Positions 2,351 through 8,761 of a stretch of DNA of 21,170 nt are shown here, in pieces (positions within the stretch are counted from its first letter, which is position 1; each line of letters begins with the position of its first letter). Under the pieces are notes generated by a model. That model saw only the letters and a program-made list of their open reading frames with translations. It searched no databases and was not told where the DNA came from. The DNA comes from an uncultured Pseudomonadota bacterium (GTDB lineage Bacteria > Pseudomonadota > Gammaproteobacteria > Burkholderiales > Methylophilaceae), in NCBI GenBank assembly GCA_903833595.1, contig CAILFU010000159.1:1-21170 (forward strand), given 5' to 3'. The translations under genes were made by a program, and so were the position numbers.

Positions 2351-2410
2351 TCAGTCGACCTATTAATCGGCTTGCTTCTAAGCCGCCGCTTAATCATAGA
2401 TTAAATTTAC

Positions 2411-2578
2411 TTAGAAAGCAGCTGCTAACTGCTGCTGCCCAGCTTTTATCTTCTGCCTTGCGCGTTCACCCTTAACGGCCTGCTGACTACGCTTAACCTG
2501 CGCTTGCATGCCCTTAATTCTAGATTGATCTGGGGTAAGTGGTTTTTGGGGTTTGACTGCAAATTCATAGAAACGCAT
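2411..2578 (-). CDS. Small basic hypothetical protein, 55 aa (MRFYEFAVKPQKPLTPDQSRIKGMQAQVKRSQQAVKGERARQKIKAGQQQLAAAF); not in the supplied ORF track
   Basis: Hand translation gives ATG at 2578 and TAA at 2411-2413. A strong Shine-Dalgarno AAGGAG lies 8 nt upstream of the ATG. It is the last gene of a minus-strand run beginning at 3241. Confidence 0.5.
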   Translation of the reverse strand: MRFYEFAVKPQKPLTPDQSRIKGMQAQVKRSQQAVKGERARQKIKAGQQQLAAAF

Positions 2579-2627
2579 GGCGTTAGCTCCTTTTAGTTAT
2601 TTAGCTAACAGCCATGCGCTGATTTTG

Positions 2628-2789
2628 TTACTGTACCTGTGTTGGTAAGCTCATCACATTAGCCACGCCAAACATAGCGTTAAATTGACCCCTTGCCGCT
2701 AGTGCGTTCATTGCTTGTAGACGCACACGTGTAGCTTGCATCATGTTCCCGCCAATAGGTACTTTTACCCAACATTCATAATTTTGCAT
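2628..2789 (-). CDS. Small hypothetical protein, 53 aa (MQNYECWVKVPIGGNMMQATRVRLQAMNALAARGQFNAMFGVANVMSLPTQVQ); not in the supplied ORF track
   Basis: Hand translation gives ATG at 2789 and TAA at 2628-2630. It starts 11 nt after the stop of the 146-aa gene, preceded by GGGGAA. The RBS is weak, so this is less certain than the 55-aa ORF. Confidence 0.4.
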   Translation of the reverse strand: MQNYECWVKVPIGGNMMQATRVRLQAMNALAARGQFNAMFGVANVMSLPTQVQ

Positions 2790-2800
2790 TTTGCATTCCC

Positions 2801-3241
2801 CTATGATTTAAAGTTACTACGCAGAGCGCCACTGACTTGTTCAATCTGTTGATCCAACTCGCCAGCTTCCACTGCTTTTTTAATGATCTCTAATGTACTT
2901 ATCAAATCTGTCATAGCGGCCAGCTCAACACTGGGTTTGCCTTTTGCAAGCTCAATCACCTTAGCGCCATAACGCACCGACACACATACCGTGCCGTTCT
3001 CTGCATTAAACCACCAAGGCCGAACATGCTTAACTAAGCTAATGGTTCTTGTTTCACCCGTTTCAGCGTTCTTCACCGTTTTCTGTTTAGTGAGATTAAG
3101 TGGCTCACCTGTGATCTGCGATTTAGCCAAAGCAATCTGTTCCCATAACTTCTCAGTGAGTTTATGGCGACGTTTCACAATTTCAGGTAAATGCTGCGGT
3201 TTGACTGTAGCAACTAGTTTTAAACTTTGTAATGTGCTCAT
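2801..3241 (-). CDS. Hypothetical protein, 146 aa, of a type I associate with integrative elements (RPWWF ... VRYGAK.IELAKGK ... AGELD)
   Basis: The ORF is intact and has a strong RBS (AAAAGGAGAATTAC-ATG). I cannot name a domain with confidence. Confidence 0.8.
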   Translation of the reverse strand: MSTLQSLKLVATVKPQHLPEIVKRRHKLTEKLWEQIALAKSQITGEPLNLTKQKTVKNAETGETRTISLVKHVRPWWFNAENGTVCVSVRYGAKVIELAKGKPSVELAAMTDLISTLEIIKKAVEAGELDQQIEQVSGALRSNFKS

Positions 3242-3296
3242 GTAATTCTCCTTTTGATTGAATGAAGCAGCACTACATTAGTGTCGAGACCGCCAG

Positions 3297-3332
3297 ATGG
3301 ACAACCTGAATCTGCCTGATCAGTCATTTTGG
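3297..3332 (-). promoter_or_regulatory. Conserved promoter-proximal box, copy 1 (ATGGACAACC...GCCT...AGTCAT.TTGG on the plus strand)
   Basis: About 30 of 38 aligned positions match 8194-8231. The box lies 55 nt upstream of the start codon at 3241; the other copy lies 52 nt upstream of the start at 8141. Read on the minus strand, TTGTCC followed 17 nt later by CTAATG is a possible -35/-10 pair. Confidence 0.45.
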
Positions 3333-3353
3333 TAAAATTGATTTCACCAAAAT
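3326..3353. promoter_or_regulatory. 28-bp near-perfect palindrome ATTTTGGTAAAAT-tg-ATTTCACCAAAAT; candidate operator
   Basis: The 13-bp arms match at 12 of 13 positions with a 2-bp spacer. It overlaps the distal end of box copy 1, upstream of the minus-strand operon. Confidence 0.5.
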
Positions 3354-3421
3354 CCCACAAAAACCGTGTTTTTCCCCTAAAAAAATATATCCGTTCATTT
3401 CTCTTTGATAAATATTTGTAC

Positions 3422-3669
3422 GAGTTGCTTAAGTTACTAGTGGTTTGTAGTTGCTGGTGATTTGGAGTGACAGAAGAGAAAAATGAGTGTTTGTAGTTGC
3501 TTGTTAGTTGCTACTTGAAATAGTTACTTGCACTAGCAACTTGCAACACGTGAGACAAATGAGAAGCCAAGAACAGCAACTACGACAGGCAACTTTAATT
3601 CACAGCAACTCCTTTTCTTCTTCTGCAACTTCTACACCAAGCAACAGGCTACAAGGCGACTAAGCAACG
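3422..3669. repeat. Iteron array: AGTTGC-core repeats facing right (3423-3511), then GCAACT-core repeats facing left (3536-3669)
   Basis: The exact 12-mer TTTGTAGTTGCT occurs at 3444-3455 and 3490-3501, and its core GTAGTTGCT occurs inverted at 3575-3583. AGTTGC also occurs at 3423 and 3506. GCAACT occurs at 3536, 3576, 3589, 3605 and 3625. GCAAC(A/G) occurs at 3543, 3641 and 3664. About 0.1 hexamer hits would be expected by chance in 250 bp. Confidence 0.7.
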
Positions 3670-3696
3670 CGCTACTTGATAACGGAGAACGAGAAC

Positions 3697-4158
3697 ATGA
3701 AGGACAGAGAAATTGCAGTACGGGGTTTTATTAATGAGAAATTTGGCAGCACTTACGGCAAAGGGTTATTTCACCGCGCCATCTATAACGGATCAATAGA
3801 ACTACGCGATCCATATACTAAATACCTAATCGATTTATTTGAATACCAGCGTTGGGATAATACGGCTAGATCAGAAGACCAACTTAAATGGTCAAAACAA
3901 CTGGCTGAAGCTGACATTAAAAGTGCACCAGAGGCTTTGGTGTCATGGATACAACACTACGATCCCATAAGTAAGTCAAAAATAATGGTTGATGGGGTTT
4001 GCGTCTATCTACCTAATAGCCAAGAGCTTTACCTCAACATCAATGATTCAGCGCATGACGTCGTTAACGAATGGACATTAAAGACTAAGCACTGCACGAA
4101 GACCGGCCCAAACAAACCGATCTTTATTGCCAGCAATGCAGATCTTGGCGTTTTTTAG
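3697..4158 (+). CDS. Hypothetical protein (153 aa from the ATG at 3697; the ORF track starts at the TTG at 3676)
   Basis: The ORF is intact. GGAGAA lies 7 nt upstream of the ATG at 3697, which favours that start over the TTG at 3676. I recognise no motif. Confidence 0.7.
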   Translation: MKDREIAVRGFINEKFGSTYGKGLFHRAIYNGSIELRDPYTKYLIDLFEYQRWDNTARSEDQLKWSKQLAEADIKSAPEALVSWIQHYDPISKSKIMVDGVCVYLPNSQELYLNINDSAHDVVNEWTLKTKHCTKTGPNKPIFIASNADLGVF

Positions 4159-4187
4159 TTTAAGCACTAGCAACATAAGAAAAACAT

Positions 4188-4209
4188 GACCGTTACTTAA
4201 GTAACGGTC
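4188..4209. other. 22-bp perfect palindrome GACCGTTACTTAAGTAACGGTC (8-bp arms around CTTAAG); a terminator stem or a recombinase/operator site
   Basis: It is perfectly self-complementary. It lies 30 nt after the stop at 4158 and 190 nt before the recombinase gene. No U-tract follows it. Confidence 0.6.
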
Positions 4210-4399
4210 GTGAGTAGGGTGGTTGGTTAGATTGGAGATAAATAATACAAACAGTCAGGTTAAGAAAAGTAACATTTCCTATACCAAAACTGTATGTCAT
4301 TGAATCTTGGAAGGTCTACCAAACAATCTTTTCGGTCGCTCTTTTGAGATAAAGAAAACACAATAGCTGTGTATTTTTATTTGTCAAAAGGAGTAAAAA

Positions 4400-4966
4400 A
4401 TGGCACAAGCCAAAACATTCACACAAGCAGAACTAGATCAAGTGCTGCGCTTCGTTAGTACTAAAAAATACGCAACGAGGGATCGCGTCATGATCCTCAC
4501 CAGTTTTTGGTCAGGAATGCGCGTGAAGGAGATATCGCAGCTTAAGATGGGCGACGTCATTAATGAAGATGACACCATAAAATCCGAAATACGCCTAAGT
4601 GCCGCCCAAACTAAAGGGGAGCAGGGGCGCATAGTTTTCATCCCAAACAAACTACGCGATGAATTAGCGGCTTATCTTAAAACACGCAAAATAAAAAATG
4701 CCGACATCCCGTTCTTTCATACTGATAGACGGCTTGGGTTTAGTGCTAGCGGTTTATGCCAGTGGTTCTTTTGGACCTACCGCAGGGCAGGCATTAATGG
4801 CGCCAGCAGCCATTCTGGCCGTCGTACGATGATTACGCAGTTGGCTAACAAGGGGATTGGCGTGCGCGTTCTTGCAAGTCTTGCAGGTCATAAATCCATT
4901 ATGGTCACGCAACGATACATAGATGTTAACGATGACATGAAAAGACAGGCCATAGAATTATTATAA
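4400..4966 (+). CDS. Tyrosine recombinase/integrase, minimal catalytic-domain-only form (188 aa, FimB/FimE-sized)
   Basis: The catalytic signature is present in order: SGMRVKE (Arg I), KGEQGR (Lys), HSGRR (His-x-x-Arg), AGHKS (His), TQRYI (Tyr nucleophile). The RBS is strong (AAAGGAG). Confidence 0.9.
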   Translation: MAQAKTFTQAELDQVLRFVSTKKYATRDRVMILTSFWSGMRVKEISQLKMGDVINEDDTIKSEIRLSAAQTKGEQGRIVFIPNKLRDELAAYLKTRKIKNADIPFFHTDRRLGFSASGLCQWFFWTYRRAGINGASSHSGRRTMITQLANKGIGVRVLASLAGHKSIMVTQRYIDVNDDMKRQAIELL

Positions 4967-5031
4967 TTGCCGCTATTATCAATACGATTAAACATAGGTA
5001 TTATTGATAAATTATTAAGATCAAGGCTAAT

Positions 5032-5313
5032 ATGACTAAATCTGAGTTAATTGCACTAATTGCTAACCGATTTCCTCAATTAGTCGCTAAAGACACTGAC
5101 TTATCAGTAAAAGTGATTATTGATGCCATATCTGACAATCTTGCTATTGGTGAACGCATTGAGATCCGAGGCTTTGGAAGTTTTAGTTTAAATTATAGGC
5201 CACCACGTTTGGGTCGCAATCCTAAAACTGGTGCTAAAGTCCAAGTGCCTAAGAAATATGTCCCGCACTTTAAGGCAGGTAAAGAGTTACGTGAACTAGT
5301 GGATCTTAGCTAA
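5032..5313 (+). CDS. ihfB: Integration host factor beta-subunit family protein (HU/IHF fold), element-borne paralog
   Basis: [48 protein letters not shown] aligns almost residue for residue with the E. coli IhfB arm region as I recall it. The 93-aa length is typical. The context (next to the recombinase, not next to rpsA) suggests an accessory copy. Confidence 0.88.
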
Positions 5314-5335
5314 GCACCAAATATCTGTCGGCGAG

Positions 5336-6292
5336 TCACTTCCCGACTTCCTTGAAGGCATTAATCTCAGCAATTATCTTTTCATAACCGTTCTGGTCAT
5401 TCATATCAAGTGGCAGTTGGCTCGTTAGAAATGTATATTCGCGCGCCACGGCGCTTTGGTTAAACCAATCACCATTAGCAATAGCCGCATTCATTTCTTT
5501 GCTCTGCGCTACACTCCAACGAACATGAGGCTTAACTTCGGCGCATGACAGGTAACGCCCAACTTCAACGTTGGCAATAATCTTTTCTGCTTTCTTTTTC
5601 TTTTGACTCACCAGCGCCCTTGTTCTGTTTTGCTTATCAAGTCTAGTGTCTAAGCTGTCATGGTTTTGCAACACTGCAGACGGGCTAATATGAATAGCAC
5701 TGCCAATTTCATAAGACTTCATTTTAGCCAGCCGCTGAGTGCTTGATGGGTCAATTTGATTAATACAATCCACTACACGTGCAAGCAAGGCTATCTGATA
5801 AATGATAGGAATTTGTTTGCGTTCGTTGGTTTTAGTTTTAAGTAGTATGTGTTTGGCGCTAGATTGAAACTGACGTGCAATGGTAGGGTAGAGGTGAATC
5901 AAAGTAAGAACTTGATCCAAGATGTCTTGGTCTGACATATACAACGGAATTTCTAAGAGTGCGTGCTGATCACGTTCAATCATTAGTAATTGCGATTGAA
6001 TAGTGATGTCAGTGACTTTAGGTGGCTTTGTGGTTTCTGCAAACACTAGCTCAGCCTTATTCTGCCACCACTCATTAAAGGTATCGTATTCGAATACATT
6101 GCCGAAGGTATGCCATACCGTACACATGCGTAAATCTAAGCAATGACCTTCTTCATGACATAGCCACCAATAATCCTGACTTAAACGTAAAAATGCGAGC
6201 CACCAAAGGTATTCACTTTTACCTGCAAAACTTAGTTCAGCTTTTTTACTTGGAAAGGGCAAGCTTGGAAGTCCCGTAAACCAACTCGTCAT
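5336..6292 (-). CDS. Hypothetical protein with a Trp-rich N-terminal motif (EYLWWLAFLRLSQDYWWLC ... FNEWW); possibly a regulator of island functions
   Basis: The ORF is intact. The track start at 6298 is a TTG. The ATG at 6292 has AAGAG 6 nt upstream and is preferred. The N-terminus resembles WxWEFLRR-type regulator-associated domains seen next to integrases; that resemblance is from memory only. Confidence 0.75.
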   Translation of the reverse strand: MTSWFTGLPSLPFPSKKAELSFAGKSEYLWWLAFLRLSQDYWWLCHEEGHCLDLRMCTVWHTFGNVFEYDTFNEWWQNKAELVFAETTKPPKVTDITIQSQLLMIERDQHALLEIPLYMSDQDILDQVLTLIHLYPTIARQFQSSAKHILLKTKTNERKQIPIIYQIALLARVVDCINQIDPSSTQRLAKMKSYEIGSAIHISPSAVLQNHDSLDTRLDKQNRTRALVSQKKKKAEKIIANVEVGRYLSCAEVKPHVRWSVAQSKEMNAAIANGDWFNQSAVAREYTFLTSQLPLDMNDQNGYEKIIAEINAFKEVGK

Positions 6293-6553
6293 GATCAACT
6301 CTTTATTATTTTTAAGTTATCGATGTGGCGTTATTTTTAAGACATGTATTTCTAATGAGCATTGTCGCCAATGAAGTTAGTCGTCGACAGGTCAATTCAA
6401 ACTAGCAGACTAAAAATTCATATTTAACCGTAAAAATCAACCTTTCATAGGCATTTGTTTTTACACGCATTTTAAATTTCATCTTTTTTACTTAGATAGG
6501 GTGGCTTGAAAGCCACGTATATCAACGATTTACATGCAAATCATAATATTCTA

Positions 6554-6583
6554 TTAATTTGTCGCTTACCCCCGACAAATTAA
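6554..6583. promoter_or_regulatory. Inverted repeat TTAATTTGTCG-(8 nt)-CGACAAATTAA in the divergent intergenic region
   Basis: The 11-bp arms are perfect (6554-6564 and 6573-6583) and are followed by T-rich sequence. It sits 75 nt upstream of the 6658 start. Further hairpins lie at 6503-6518 (GTGGCTT/AAGCCAC) and 6609-6630 (ATGGCAT/ATGCCAT). Confidence 0.5.
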
Positions 6584-6657
6584 TACTTTATTTTCGTAAG
6601 CTAGTTATATGGCATTAATAAGTGATGCCATTTAATGACTAATTTAGGAGAATAATC

Positions 6658-7722
6658 ATGGAAACGCAAACTTCAGTGCAAACTAAACCTACCGCTAAAA
6701 TCACTATTCCACCAAACGGCAATGTGATTGTTGATGAAGATCAAGATGAATTTGATCTAGATGATTTTGAACTGAACATATTTACGCCACAAACCAATAT
6801 GGCAAAACGCCCCAGTGACGTTGATGAGATTTTAGAACAAGTAGATAAGGTGCTGGCTAAAGGTAAGACCTTAGGCGCCTTGAATGACAAGTTTGTTGAT
6901 ACGTATGTGATCAAAGGCAATAAAGAGCTTTATGAGTTATTGGCGGCTATCTATGGCTTTATGCTACAAGTGAATGAGTCGGCCTATAAAGAGCATATTT
7001 TAAAACGTATGCGCGAACAGTTGAAAGATAGTTTTGACATTGCTTTACAAGAAAGCAGCACTGTTGAATCGATTGTTGTGCGATATGTGGTGCCCAAAGA
7101 TCGTCAAACAGCATTTAACTATGCGCGTGTTTTAAAGGTAGCTTTTATTGAAAACATCGCAGCAAAAGACTTGTCTGGCTACATTAGCGGGCGCGGTGGC
7201 ATTTCTAAAATACAAGATACGCTTGAGAATGTACAAAATGCAGTAGAGGAGAAAAAATCGATTAAGAGAAAACTGTCGTTATACAAAAAAATCATTTTAG
7301 CTAGAACTAAGGTTGCAAGTAAGCCTATTAAAATTAACAAAGGCAAAAAGCTAAGTCTTGTTCCTTATGGTACTAAACCTGCTATGTTTGACTTTGCTGT
7401 ATTGAGCAACATCGGCGGAGAAGACTACCGAATTCATCAAGTCGTGCAATTGCCTTTAGCTGTCGGGGATCAGTGGTTGAATTATATTAGCCAGAATGTC
7501 ATTGTGGATGATCTTGAATTGGTTCAAGATAAACTCGATGAGTTAAGGGCTAGACTAGGCATTGCTGAAGGCTATGGCATGCAGCCTGGTGATAAAGGGT
7601 ACAAGCCTTTGGTGATGAATCCACAAGCTGACGCTAGTGCAGAAGAAGTAGACGTTGATGATTCCAATGACTTGGAAACACCTGAAGAAGCCGTTGAACG
7701 GGTTGCACTTGAACATCCTTAA
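6658..7722 (+). CDS. Hypothetical protein, 354 aa, with acidic N- and C-termini
   Basis: The ORF is intact with a strong RBS (TAGGAGAATAATC-ATG) and is followed by a clean terminator. I saw no Walker, HUH or other catalytic motif. Confidence 0.8.
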   Translation: METQTSVQTKPTAKITIPPNGNVIVDEDQDEFDLDDFELNIFTPQTNMAKRPSDVDEILEQVDKVLAKGKTLGALNDKFVDTYVIKGNKELYELLAAIYGFMLQVNESAYKEHILKRMREQLKDSFDIALQESSTVESIVVRYVVPKDRQTAFNYARVLKVAFIENIAAKDLSGYISGRGGISKIQDTLENVQNAVEEKKSIKRKLSLYKKIILARTKVASKPIKINKGKKLSLVPYGTKPAMFDFAVLSNIGGEDYRIHQVVQLPLAVGDQWLNYISQNVIVDDLELVQDKLDELRARLGIAEGYGMQPGDKGYKPLVMNPQADASAEEVDVDDSNDLETPEEAVERVALEHP

Positions 7723-7747
7723 ATAGCAGGTTGGGTAAGCCGCCATA

Positions 7748-7768
7748 ACCGCCTTCGGGCGGTTTTTT
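7748..7768 (+). terminator. Rho-independent terminator between convergent genes
   Basis: The stem is AACCGCC-ttcg-GGCGGTT, followed by a T-run. It overlaps the stop codon of the minus-strand gene 7767-8141. Confidence 0.8.
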
Positions 7769-8141
7769 AATATTCACTGGTTAGCATTACTACCCAAAAT
7801 TCGCCTGACCACACCCCATACAGCCTAATGCTATCTAGCGGAAAATCCGTATATTCGACATATTGCTTAGCTAGCTGATTGCCATTGCCATCATCAATAA
7901 TAATGTTAGCGCCGAAGTTATTTTTGGTTAAGATTAGGCAGGTGAAGTATTCTTTGGCTAGATCAACCTCAATTAGATGCGATGCATATAAATCCATTAG
8001 CCAATAACAACTTGCCGTCTCAGCGAGATAATGAGCACCTTCAGTTAATACAGTTTTTGGGGAAATGCGCACATACTTAGTCGTGCCAGTGAAGTAGGAG
8101 AGGGCGTTTTTTAGTTCACGTGCTAGTGCTAGATCTGTCAT
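7767..8141 (-). CDS. Hypothetical protein, 124 aa, resembling the conjugative-element family I recall as DUF6876 (F.GT..Y.R ... LAE....YWL.D ... DGNG ... YTDFPL ... MLTSEY)
   Basis: The ORF is intact. The motif pattern is matched from memory, so the family name is not certain. It is preceded by box copy 2. Confidence 0.7.
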   Translation of the reverse strand: MTDLALARELKNALSYFTGTTKYVRISPKTVLTEGAHYLAETASCYWLMDLYASHLIEVDLAKEYFTCLILTKNNFGANIIIDDGNGNQLAKQYVEYTDFPLDSIRLYGVWSGEFWVVMLTSEY

Positions 8142-8193
8142 TTTCTGTGCTCAACGTTGTTATGTTGATACAAGTATTTGATCTTTTGACGCA

Positions 8194-8231
8194 ATGGACA
8201 ACCGAAATATGCCTCATTAAAGTCATCTTGG
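8194..8231 (-). promoter_or_regulatory. Conserved promoter-proximal box, copy 2
   Basis: ATGGACAACCGAAATATGCCTCATTAAAGTCATCTTGG matches 3297-3332 at about 30 of 38 aligned positions. It lies 52 nt upstream of the start at 8141. On the minus strand, TTGTCC followed 17 nt later by AATACT is a possible -35/-10 pair. Confidence 0.45.
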
Positions 8232-8368: not shown

Positions 8369-8761
8369 CTAATTTTTAAGTGATGTTTTGGCTGTGTTTG
8401 TTGTGCTTGAAGTGGTTCCATCCCCATATTTGGTAAAGACAGTTTCTGAGTTCACTGAGTAGAATACCGAACTAATACCAGGCACTACTGACACTACTGG
8501 ATTAGTAGTACCATCGGCAAAAGTATAGGTGATGGTTTTAGTAATATGGTCATCAGCCCATGTCACAGGTGCACTAGTAGCAACGTTAGTTACACTAGTG
8601 CCATTGGAGTAGTTAACAACCTCTACATTCGCAACGTATGTTTTTGATGTTACTAATGCACTTGGAGTGACTGCAACAGTATTGCCTACGTCCAACCCAG
8701 CACAAGCAGTTAAAACGGCAGAAATTATAAAAGTTATTAAAACTATAGATAGTTTAGACAC
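8369..8761 (-). CDS. Lipoprotein carrying one copy of the 64-aa module found in the S8 protease
   Basis: It has a signal peptide with a lipobox (VLTAC-AG) and a GTG start 16 nt after the upstream stop. TSAPVTWADDHITKTITYTFADGTTNPVVSVVPG parallels the protease repeat. Confidence 0.8.
   Translation of the reverse strand: MSKLSIVLITFIISAVLTACAGLDVGNTVAVTPSALVTSKTYVANVEVVNYSNGTSVTNVATSAPVTWADDHITKTITYTFADGTTNPVVSVVPGISSVFYSVNSETVFTKYGDGTTSSTTNTAKTSLKN

Follow-up and report, generated by a model that had tools for sequence, protein, structure and literature searches.

A TAAATA box, an imperfect palindrome and an orphan gene as a conserved three-part cassette, possibly with a structured 5' leader, in small integrative elements of freshwater Burkholderiales

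Structured 5' leaders of mRNAs take several forms, including 5'-terminal stem-loops that stabilise the message, hairpins that are processed by RNase III, and the leader of P4, which contains the complementary sequences seqA, seqB and seqC. Among DNA signals, the replication origin of SaPIs consists of two sets of iterons that flank an AT-rich region. A further class of folded signal is represented by Frpo or ssi, the single-stranded DNA promoters found in the leading regions of conjugative plasmids (Masai and Arai 1997; PMC11541004), whose defining feature is a set of -35, -10 and UP elements re-formed within a stem (PMC11541004). Here we describe a locus that invites comparison with all of these systems. 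In small integrative elements of freshwater Burkholderiales, a TAAATA box, a palindrome and the gene for an orphan protein, p153, constitute a single three-part cassette, and we tentatively interpret the palindrome, with a confidence a little short of even, as a structured 5' leader RNA of p153.

The window (the whole 21,170-nt contig analysed here) contains 18 matches to the hexamer AGTTGC, 9 of which are concentrated within 208 nt (3423-3630) and are partitioned by orientation. Four exact copies lie on the + strand (3423, 3449, 3495 and 3506), and are followed by five on the - strand, which read GCAACT on the + strand (3536, 3576, 3589, 3605 and 3625), with the switch in orientation falling between 3511 and 3536. 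Variants with one mismatch obey the same split, with AGTTAC at 3432 and 3522 on the + side, and GCAACA (3543 and 3641), GCGACT (3656) and GCAACG (3664) on the - side. No other hexamer in the contig forms so dense a cluster (9 copies in 210 nt), and in 200 simulations under a first-order Markov model the best hexamer cluster held 4-7 copies and never 8 or more, in agreement with the claim of a preliminary description of this DNA that the array is far above chance. The irregular spacing of 11-46 bp given in that description is also borne out by the measured distances between AGTTGC copies (26, 46 and 11 nt on the left; 40, 13, 16 and 20 nt on the right). The two exact copies of a 12-mer that it listed do exist, but the repeated unit is actually a 13-mer, GTTTGTAGTTGCT, present in the left set at 3443 and 3489. 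Over-representation of AGTTGC was not found in the contig beyond the array, and we consequently dropped the possibility of a chi or KOPS-like polar motif. A 51-aa ORF at 3508-3663 has a TTG start and lies wholly within the array, and is probably spurious.

The two repeat sets are not independent iterons, and instead form the arms of one conserved imperfect palindrome, 170-290 nt in length (about 250 nt), in which the left arm and the reverse-complemented right arm are approximately 80% identical. On the + strand of the window, the left (5') arm occupies 3421-3517 and includes, besides its four AGTTGC copies and the AGTTAC at 3432, a purine/A-rich tract at 3471-3482, while the right (3') arm (3575-3671) includes the GCAACT copies at 3576, 3589, 3605 and 3625, the GCAACA at 3641, the GCGACT and GCAACG variants, and a T/C-rich tract at 3613-3625. 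In the predicted fold the arms pair as helices 3424-3431:3661-3668, 3440-3448:3644-3652, 3471-3482:3613-3625 and 3495-3512:3575-3594. The apex between them (3518-3574) holds the GCAACT at 3536 and the GCAACA at 3543, and is predicted to form local hairpins (3528-3531:3536-3539 and 3540-3544:3550-3554), followed by an asymmetric, family-invariant block at 3554-3574, GACAAATGAG.., which is mostly unpaired in the predicted fold.

Folding of the + strand of the window yields -92.2 kcal/mol (z -5.6), and the family mean z-score is -4.7, with plain shuffles as the background. When spacers were shuffled and motifs retained, the mean minimum free energy rose from -72.9 to -57.7 kcal/mol (mean z -3.5, with z < -2 in 25 of 28 loci), which indicates that the spacers take part in pairing. 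Moreover, each arm pairs better with its own partner than with arms swapped in from other loci (27/27 loci, mean advantage -8.6 kcal/mol after double centring, permutation z -8.7), and the first and last repeats covary, with 26 T:A, 10 T:G, 9 C:G and 2 G:C combinations and no mismatch, while the other repeats of the covarying loci remain AGTTGC. These alignment-free tests were used in place of RNAalifold, which detected zero pairs in the family alignment and, in an alignment of a 16-sequence subfamily, short local helices without a full-length consensus helix, because indels and repeat slippage defeat alignment by MAFFT. The two strands fold about equally well, with the + strand better in 27 of 52 cases across the family. 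Mismatches between the arms are mostly transversions; transitions compatible with G-U pairing on the + strand are weakly in excess (85 vs 63), and isolated G-U-compatible mismatches number 8 vs 4 (p 0.39). A search of Rfam 15 with positions 3200-4500 of the window, at E-values up to 1, gave only a chance match elsewhere, and eight homologous loci searched at the gathering threshold returned tRNAs only; the idea of a known Polynucleobacter RNA motif likewise met with no Rfam match.

The same architecture, with + repeats followed by - repeats, is present at approximately 60 homologous loci, over which p153 identity falls to 30%, in Methylophilaceae, Polynucleobacter, Limnohabitans and other freshwater Burkholderiales, and the cultured carriers include Polynucleobacter yangtzensis MWH-JaK3, P. 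sphagniphilus MWH-Weng1-1, P. sinensis MWH-HuW1 and P. meluiroseus AP-Melu-1000-B4. Lack of conservation in homologous elements, which had been put forward as grounds for rejecting the array, is thus not what we observe. Among 28 non-redundant homologous loci the distal arm contains 145 copies of GTYRC and 14 in the opposite sense, and the proximal arm 201 copies of GYRAC and 3 in the opposite sense, giving an orientation purity over both arms of 346 to 17. Family-wide, these pentamers average 5.2 per locus in the left arm and 7.2 in the right, at a density roughly 17 times chance, and about half of the right-arm motifs lack a left-arm motif as pairing partner. The repeat core is 5-6 nt in length; among the family loci the spacings peak at 7-8 and 12-13 nt, and a helical (10-11-nt) periodicity is not seen.

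Two blocks are invariant while the remaining palindrome diverges, one at the base (GCGAGTYGC) and one at the apex. The former includes the first repeat, which is invariant as GCGAGTTGC in alignment A3 and overlaps +1 to +10 of the inferred promoter described below, and the latter, CAAATGAG-TARC-TCTGAC, is near-invariant in the same family alignment and occurs as one copy per locus, always in the + sense. An invertible fimS-like switch was dropped in view of this identical sense at all loci, as was a sigma-54 promoter at the apex, for want of a -12 element. Motif and centre are unchanged even between highly divergent elements resident in the same genome, and the array is intact in every integrated copy of the element. 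Across 401 genomes the array pattern is confined to p153 loci, save for a single match in genome G175, which bears no resemblance to the array and is apparently due to chance.

Downstream of the array lies the gene for p153 (3697-4158, + strand), the sole gene that co-occurs strictly with it. Of the four proteins proposed earlier as candidate binders (146, 153, 318 and 354 aa), only the 153-aa protein follows the array in this manner, whereas the other three do not. The array accompanies p153 even where the usual divergent neighbour, a DUF6641 gene (2801-3241, - strand), or rec188 is not adjacent. The DUF6641 gene is also common to array-less sister elements, and those sister elements that possess DUF6641 and rec188 with another gene in the p153 slot are without the array. 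Homologues of p153 fall into 419 clusters, all hypothetical, and its AlphaFold2 model is confident (pLDDT 91) and mostly beta, yet the protein has no match in Pfam, NCBIfam, PHROGs or PADLOC, and its model has no likeness to known RNA-binding or DNA-binding folds. Fold searches returned nothing significant, either in the PDB (best E 0.045) or in BFVD, where an uncharacterised phage protein scored highest (TM 0.55), and faint similarities to OB-type ssDNA binders, namely an Oxytricha telomere protein (E 0.21) and a phage SSB (TM 0.38), were regarded as noise. The fold search of p354 against the PDB was similarly without a significant match, as were comparisons with PDB sequences by profiles built for p153, p354, DUF6641 and the HUH-like set, and nothing usable was obtained for p320, p354, p53 and p55 from Pfam, NCBIfam, PHROGs or PADLOC.

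The candidate ends of the element are 9-nt direct repeats at 2351 and 8282, with the palindrome internal. A folded ssDNA recombination site of the integron attC or CTX attP type is not supported, as the palindrome lies inside the integrated element and is intact in every copy, and an attP or dif-like site was dropped in view of the internal position and of a centre that is not dyad-symmetric. We found no relative of p153 among the 2.9 million viral contigs of IMG/VR, no match for the DNA of 2400-8200 in plasmid and phage collections, and no tblastn match for DUF6641 in phages or p153 in plasmids. Literature searches found no mention of DUF6641 or DUF6876, and a paper on Methylophilaceae genomic islands describes insertions bordered by xerC/xerD and does not mention the present element. 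Pfam, NCBIfam and PHROGs concur with the earlier statement that no recognisable Rep or Par protein is encoded nearby: they identify no Rep-family protein, helicase, primase, ParA/ParB or ParM/R-type family, or HTH protein in the element, and neither do the PDB profile and fold searches of p153 and p354 (for Rep, helicase, primase, ParA/B or HTH). No relaxase, transfer or HUH gene is recognised in p153-type elements. In sister elements, the slot is often occupied by Rep-like genes, and small proteins found there carry IEG..HUH..W..Y..K motifs and match PF23343 (REP_ORF2-G2P) below threshold. Judging from these motifs they would be rolling-circle-type initiators, which would generate ssDNA.

The left boundary of the cassette is a TAAATA box (3409-3414, + strand; TGaTAAATA in the window), the putative -10 element of a rightward promoter, P_X. 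Exactly one copy is present 185-305 nt upstream of p153 in 39/39 non-redundant loci, and the box is invariant in alignment A3. In 11 of approximately 18 sister loci that lack p153, TAAATA stands 5 nt (once 4 nt) ahead of the start codon (ATG) of the variable gene, a gene devoid of a Shine-Dalgarno sequence, suggesting that it acts as the -10 element of leaderless mRNAs, often as TGnTAAATA. As a sigma-70 -10 element it scores poorly, since position 6 is not T and a -35 partner is missing. In 26/28 loci, however, the stretch from the box to p153 contains no other sigma-70-like promoter. Back to back with the box stands a promoter-like site, recognised by consensus match, that would serve the leftward DUF6641 operon (TTATCA-16-TATATT, 3384-3411, - strand). 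The palindrome always begins 5-7 nt past TAAATA and ends before the Shine-Dalgarno sequence of p153, such that a p153 mRNA starting at the predicted site would carry a leader of approximately 277 nt (3420-3696, + strand) with the whole array inside. In minimum-free-energy folds of this predicted leader, nt 1-3 pair with bases at a median of 25 nt before the ATG in 28/28 loci, and the closing pair encloses 88% of the leader. The GGAG Shine-Dalgarno sequence of p153 (3685-3688, + strand) has 0 of 4 nt paired in the predicted fold, and in most loci 0-1 nt are paired.

The pairing of the spacers, the co-evolution of the arms and the exact fit of the palindrome between a -10-like box and a ribosome-binding site together point to action in single-stranded form, which would be the likeliest working state of the palindrome. 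The explanation that we favour, at a little less than even confidence, is that transcription from the TAAATA promoter starts 5-7 nt downstream, at the first repeat, and that the entire array consequently becomes the 5' leader of p153 mRNA, with RNA rather than DNA as the active form. The leader would form one long panhandle hairpin, extending from nt 1-3 to approximately 25 nt before the start codon and leaving the ribosome-binding site of p153 free. The hairpin, its invariant loop (ACAAATGAG..) and the surplus GCAAC copies of the 3' arm may then set the expression of p153, by affecting how stable the mRNA is, by directing the long duplex to processing, or by binding a protein, the most plausible candidate for which would be p153 itself, acting in feedback. 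The absence of origin hallmarks counts in favour of a leader. Conversely, an RNA under selection would usually give a clearer G-U bias between strands than 85 vs 63, and the similar folding of both strands, together with the failure of RNAalifold to recover a full-length consensus helix, also counts against RNA. The poor match of TAAATA to a sigma-70 -10 element and the dissimilarity of the p153 model to known RNA-binding and DNA-binding folds weigh on the same side, and a plain hairpin accounts neither for the 5-7 pentamer copies per arm nor for the invariance of the pentamer despite wide divergence of p153.

The weak wobble bias fits better with DNA, and a single-stranded state could also arise if the palindrome folded in a DNA strand during rolling-circle replication, mobilisation or packaging. 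By analogy with ssoA or Frpo/ssi, it might there provide a single-strand origin, a priming site, or an ssDNA promoter from which p153 and rec188 are expressed early. We regard this as rather unlikely. The location of a 170-290-nt palindrome in a non-coding stretch just before an ORF, the constancy of its apical motif and the co-evolution of its arms are consistent with such a role, Frpo elements being folded regulatory regions of 50-350 nt upstream of ORFs (PMC11541004), and the HUH/G2P-like initiators that sister elements hold in the same slot are suggestive. However, p153-type elements themselves are without a HUH protein, relaxase or recognisable oriT, and the sigma-70 -35/-10 pair that defines Frpo (criterion: at least 8 of 12 matches) is absent from the stem on the + strand in 26/28 loci. 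Furthermore, the CS-6 motif (TAGCGT/A) is not conserved at the apex, viral contigs yield no relative of p153, and neither strand is consistently favoured, whereas sso and Frpo act on one strand.

The number and purity of the pentamers, with 5 + 7 copies per locus at some 17 times chance, and the surplus of right-arm copies beyond pairing needs are easier to reconcile with a protein that recognises the motif again and again than with folding alone. Under a rival hypothesis, a serious one although we likewise consider it rather unlikely, a sequence-specific protein, whether p153, a different protein of the element or one from the host, binds the GTTGC pentamers in double-stranded DNA as opposed sets around a conserved centre, either as a bidirectional replication origin or as a large repression complex over the p153 transcript start. 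Consistent with this, the invariant first repeat overlaps the inferred +1 to +10, the slot often contains Rep-like genes in sister elements, and the core origins of SV40/polyomavirus, like SaPI origins, also have short repeats in two facing sets about a centre. Yet complementary spacers, covariation at specific positions and co-evolving arms would not be expected from binding to duplex DNA, the repeat spacing lacks a 10-11-nt periodicity, and motif and centre are invariant among divergent elements, whereas iteron-Rep pairs diversify.

Of the more specific proposals of this kind raised by the preliminary description, neither an iteron origin of the classical type nor a par site is supported, and a multi-site operator looks doubtful. 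There are no 17-22-bp direct repeats in one orientation, only a short core in two inverted sets, and no DnaA box (at most one mismatch) in the gap of the window or conserved in the family, nor an IHF consensus. By comparison with SaPI/PICI-type origins, two sets of short repeats are present (4 + 5 exact hexamers), but the centre is a conserved block of mixed composition, at approximately 55-65% AT like its surroundings, instead of an AT-rich unwinding core; an AT content of 0.70-0.73 is reached only in the promoter stretch 3332-3421. An initiator helicase, a partition protein and an HTH protein all go unrecognised in the element. As regards an operator, the first repeat alone overlaps the inferred P_X start and the other copies lie 30-250 nt downstream, with no repeat near the DUF6641 promoter-like site and no HTH or repressor fold recognised.

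It is conceivable, if doubtful, that p153 and the palindrome together make up a new kind of module, with one protein and one nucleic-acid component, that acts in trans for the element, rather than through mere control in cis. In it, p153 would represent a new beta-barrel fold that reads the GCAAC/GUUGC pentamers of leader RNA or ssDNA, whether single-stranded or folded into a hairpin. Such a module might provide a protein-primed or hairpin-primed start of replication that replaces the HUH initiators of sister elements, or it might be an addiction pair of RNA antidote and protein. Finally, a functionless inverted-duplication or MITE-like remnant homogenised by gene conversion, to which the arm identity, the unselected appearance of the transversion-rich mismatches and the lack of strand bias could be attributed, is very improbable, given an identical site in approximately 60 loci across several bacterial families, base and apex blocks that stay invariant as the rest diverges, fixed boundaries at TAAATA+5-7 and before the Shine-Dalgarno sequence, absence from elsewhere in the genomes searched, and 100-nt arms that at 80% identity are poor substrates for conversion.

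These elements are multi-copy and widespread in dominant bacteria of lake plankton (Polynucleobacter, Ca. Methylopumilus and Limnohabitans), and nearly all of their proteins are orphans, such that the cassette offers a testable handle on their workings. It is a candidate for a structured RNA, or an ssDNA signal, of a new kind that Rfam does not contain, tied to a protein family that is confidently folded and without known relatives. Since putative rolling-circle-type initiators with leaderless mRNAs fill this slot in sister elements, the family also represents a natural experiment in module exchange, and experimental study is made feasible by several carriers being cultured type strains.

With respect to known systems, the SV40/polyomavirus (GAGGC pentamers) and SaPI origins share with our locus cores of 5-6 nt in two facing sets round a centre, but differ in that the present element has neither an initiator helicase gene nor an AT-rich centre, and in that its arms are much longer, complementary also in the spacers, and situated in an apparent transcribed leader. 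ToxIN, a type III toxin-antitoxin system, similarly combines a promoter, a repeat-bearing non-coding stretch and a gene for 150-170 aa on a mobile element. However, ToxI comprises tandem direct units of approximately 36 nt followed by a terminator, whereas the repeats here are 5-6-nt inverted repeats that form a hairpin, and the p153 model shows no ToxN likeness, with no significant PDB fold match and no PADLOC match. Frpo/ssi resembles the palindrome in being a folded region, some hundreds of nt long, that immediately precedes an ORF of a mobile element, but the stem here contains no -35/-10 pair (26/28 loci) and has no oriT or relaxase context. The ssoA-type single-strand origins found on rolling-circle plasmids, and in filamentous phages the hairpins of the minus-strand origin and of packaging, are also non-coding imperfect palindromes of 150-300 nt with a conserved tip motif, and the palindrome adjoins a slot for replication or propagation genes that holds HUH/G2P-like genes in sister elements, but here a HUH Rep, CS-6, strand preference and virus association are all lacking. 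Compared with the structured 5' leaders of mobile elements and phages, the stem is far longer (approximately 100 bp), with arms built of pentamers and an invariant apical block, the partner protein is an orphan and there is no Rfam match. The putative leader nevertheless shares with these a position between a predicted promoter and the ribosome-binding site, a long imperfect duplex, internally complementary repeats, and a stem that starts at nt 1-3 of the predicted transcript.

The 455-nt intergenic gap between the DUF6641 gene (2801-3241, leftward) and the orphan gene p153 (3697-4158, rightward, encoding 153 aa) holds the window's top hexamer cluster, with 9 copies of AGTTGC in 210 nt. The exact hexamer lies on the + strand at 3423, 3449, 3495 and 3506, and its complement GCAACT, read on the same strand, at 3536, 3576, 3589, 3605 and 3625; together these represent 9 of the 18 AGTTGC/GCAACT matches in the contig, and one exact 13-mer, GTTTGTAGTTGCT, occurs twice in the array. 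One-mismatch variants divide by orientation in like manner (AGTTAC at 3432 and 3522, GCAACA at 3543 and 3641, GCGACT at 3656, GCAACG at 3664), and 8 copies of any hexamer per 210 nt were never reached in 200 Markov-simulated windows. The oriented array of the preliminary description is borne out as stated. Its two facing repeat sets are the arms of one long imperfect hairpin, and the array is one palindrome rather than two independent site sets.

Positions 3410-3696 fold as this single hairpin at -92.2 kcal/mol on the + strand with RNA parameters, versus -68.5 +/- 4.3 for shuffles (z -3.7 with DNA parameters; z -3.6 for the - strand with RNA parameters). Predicted helices pair 3424-3431 with 3661-3668, 3440-3448 with 3644-3652, 3471-3482 with 3613-3625, and 3495-3512 with 3575-3594, and over 52 homologous loci the mean folding z is -4.7 (+) and -4.2 (-). 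Three alignment-free tests (spacer shuffle, arm swap and basal covariation) show that pairing exceeds motif complementarity alone. When all motifs were held in place and only spacers randomised, mean MFE rose from -72.9 to -57.7 kcal/mol (full shuffle -47.8), with a mean z of -3.5 and values below -2 in 25 of 28 loci. When every left arm was set against every right arm and row and column effects were removed, the own-partner residual was negative in 27/27 loci (mean -8.6 kcal/mol, permutation z -8.7). At the base, AGT[N]GC (the first repeat) pairs with GC[N']ACT (the last, immediately ahead of the RBS); the N:N' combinations are T:A in 26 cases, T:G in 10, C:G in 9 and G:C in 2, with no mismatches, given a duplex search that admits G-U pairs and hence favours T:G over C:A. 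The G:C loci keep AGTTGC in their remaining repeats, so what changes is pairing at a specific position, not motif specificity. Left and reverse-complemented right arms are about 80% identical; in MFE folds, which for repeat-rich sequence have many near-equivalent registers, 72% of the left-arm motifs have a pairing partner among those on the right, where roughly half of the copies are surplus.

DUF6641 was found in 15 of 401 genomes of the order, often in multiple copies, and a p153 profile search yielded 64 loci from Ca. Methylopumilus and other Methylophilaceae, many Polynucleobacter strains, Limnohabitans, Rhodoferax, Comamonadaceae and Alcaligenaceae. Gene order is kept, with DUF6641 and the small p55 leftward, and p153 and rec188 (a tyrosine recombinase gene) rightward, often followed by p320 and p354. 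In essentially every locus AGTYGC is confined to the half of the gap far from p153 and GCRACT to the p153-proximal half; in 28 non-redundant loci the left arm has 145 GTYRC against 14 wrong-sense copies, and the right arm 201 GYRAC against 3, although the loci are phylogenetically related and such counts overstate independence. TAAATA directly left of the first repeat (3409-3414 in the window), the first repeat itself (GCGAGTYGC) and a central asymmetric block at the orientation switch, GACAAATGAGTARCTCTGAC, are invariant or nearly so, and the left arm has an A-rich tract that lies opposite a T-rich one in the right. The possibility that the repeats are not conserved in homologous elements, allowed for in the preliminary description, therefore fails decisively.

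This set of TAAATA, palindrome and centre remains with p153 where rec188 is elsewhere (L038-L041) and where the upstream neighbour is not DUF6641 (L062, L079, L080, L082, L086), and is absent from sister elements that carry DUF6641 and rec188 homologues with another gene in the p153 slot. A pattern search of the 401 genomes gave matches only at p153 loci, save one apparent chance match. As the set follows p153 and not rec188 or DUF6641, the sequence evidence points to promoter box, palindrome and p153 as the functional unit. In a Polynucleobacter MAG (L045), an IS-like transposase-coding insert, judged by eye, lies in the array some 45-450 nt upstream of the p153 homologue, apparently replacing all but its last ~45 nt while p153 and rec188 are intact; if this reading is true, the locus is a natural knock-out of the palindrome.

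The window spans an entire 21-kb contig within a 2.06-Mb metagenome-assembled genome, and the element's nearest relatives are in the Methylophilaceae. The array sits inside a 5.9-kb block flanked by a 9-nt direct repeat (TCAGTCGAC at 2351 and 8282), which encodes the small proteins p55 and p53, DUF6641, p153, rec188 (188 aa, catalytic domain only), an IHF-beta paralogue, p320, p354 and DUF6876. Only two of these products, the recombinase and IHF paralogue, can be given a function; the block's proteins include no recognisable Rep, Par, helicase, primase, relaxase or HTH repressor, in agreement with the earlier remark that recognisable Rep and Par proteins are missing nearby. AF2 models of p153 (pLDDT 91, beta-rich) and p354 (pLDDT 75) matched no solved fold; among viral structures p153 comes closest to an uncharacterised phage protein (TM 0.55), and of the 419 homologous clusters of p153 none is named or has a Pfam domain. 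A subtilase-like ORF at the contig start (1-500) has two tandem N-terminal modules, to which the product of a 130-aa gene (8369-8761) is 87-88% identical at protein level.

Several element copies have tRNA genes within a few kb (L038 9909-9981, L050 4244-4316, L055 2861-2933, L087 975-1047), suggestive of integration beside tRNA genes there; the copy in the window, unlike these, lies between 9-nt direct repeats. In one genome (L034, 4515-5792 and 10570-11703) a DUF6641-HUH-rec188 module belongs to a larger island, in which a C5 cytosine methyltransferase adjoins DUF6641; a P4-type integrase of full length, with arm-binding, SAM-like and catalytic domains, is encoded there too, and therefore the minimal recombinase may not be the integrase of these elements. 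Three further sites were observed. The exact 18-mer GTCATTGAWTCTTGGAAG (4296-4313) precedes the rec188 start codon by ~85 nt and is letter-identical in ~30 fetched loci (e.g. L029, L030, L044-L061, L084-L099), of which some overlap, among elements whose proteins are just 64-80% identical; it could serve the minimal recombinase as a regulatory or recombination site. A 22-nt perfect palindrome follows p153 (4184-4209), and palindromes of other sequence, e.g. CGTCGTCTAAAGACGACA, occupy the same place in L029 and L030; a transcript-end hairpin without a U-tract fits better here than a conserved recombination core. Finally, the TGGACAACC box (3299-3308), which precedes the DUF6641 start by about 55-60 nt, is kept in many homologous gaps (L036, L043, L047, L083, L098), including those of sister elements without p153, and may act in the leftward operon as an operator or leader element.

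In 11 loci of sister elements that carry DUF6641 but no p153, exactly 5 nt (in one case 4) separate TAAATA from the variable gene's ATG, and a Shine-Dalgarno sequence is missing; the box lies upstream of DUF6641 homologues (L005, L006, L007, L009, L011, L012, L019, L021 and L028 among them). The box often reads TGnTAAATA, and looks like a conserved extended -10 promoter making leaderless mRNAs for an exchangeable gene slot. Slot genes are of two kinds: small basic helical proteins of 94-127 aa, and ~170-190-aa proteins in which the motifs IEG, H-U-H/N (as H-U-H or H-F-N) and W..Y..K are invariant (L009/L034, L011/L035, L021/L032, L007, L019 and L013). The latter match PF23343 (REP_ORF2-G2P) below threshold, resemble HUH endonucleases and are probably rolling-circle initiators or nickases of a minimal HUH type. 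In p153 elements the palindrome starts 5-7 nt after TAAATA, and no further sigma-70-like promoter was found between TAAATA and p153 in 26/28 loci. Folding the predicted transcript (TAAATA+5 to ATG, 174-294 nt, 28 loci) placed the first paired base at nt 1-3 in 28/28, with its partner ahead of the ATG by a median of 25 nt, a closing pair spanning 88% of the leader and the SD mostly unpaired; the array therefore fills the predicted leader exactly.

Every functional statement here is drawn from sequence, the transcription start included, and on the balance of points for and against RNA, single-stranded and double-stranded DNA we tentatively prefer, at a little under an even chance, that the array acts as a hairpin in the p153 leader RNA. 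Placement after the promoter box supports this form, as does a predicted hairpin that opens at +1-3 and finishes ahead of a free RBS, and p153-type elements give no sign of a single-stranded DNA stage. Against RNA, folding energy has no strand preference (+ better in 27/52), G-U-compatible mismatches on the + strand are in only weak excess (85 vs 63; isolated 8 vs 4, p 0.39), arm mismatches are mostly transversions, and RNAalifold gave no consensus structure. A hairpin acting in single-stranded DNA is unlikely: sister elements encode rolling-circle-type initiators and the palindrome resembles ssoA and Frpo elements in size and shape, yet p153 elements have no HUH protein, no CS-6 motif, no promoter within the stem and no viral association. 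Equally doubtful is a double-stranded binding-site array, for which the heavy repetition, orientation purity and surplus copies of the pentamer speak, but against which spacer pairing, arm co-variation and basal covariation all count, so that the replication-origin or operator reading first proposed is not favoured, origin hallmarks and helical phasing also being absent.

The leader-RNA hairpin that we prefer matches no Rfam family, and we found no mention of the flanking DUFs in the literature. Structured leaders, single-strand origins with palindromes and origins with opposed repeats are general kinds already known. The architecture itself, in which orientation-partitioned pentamers form the arms of a 170-290-nt hairpin with an invariant asymmetric loop block, coupled to an orphan beta-rich protein, appears to be undescribed.
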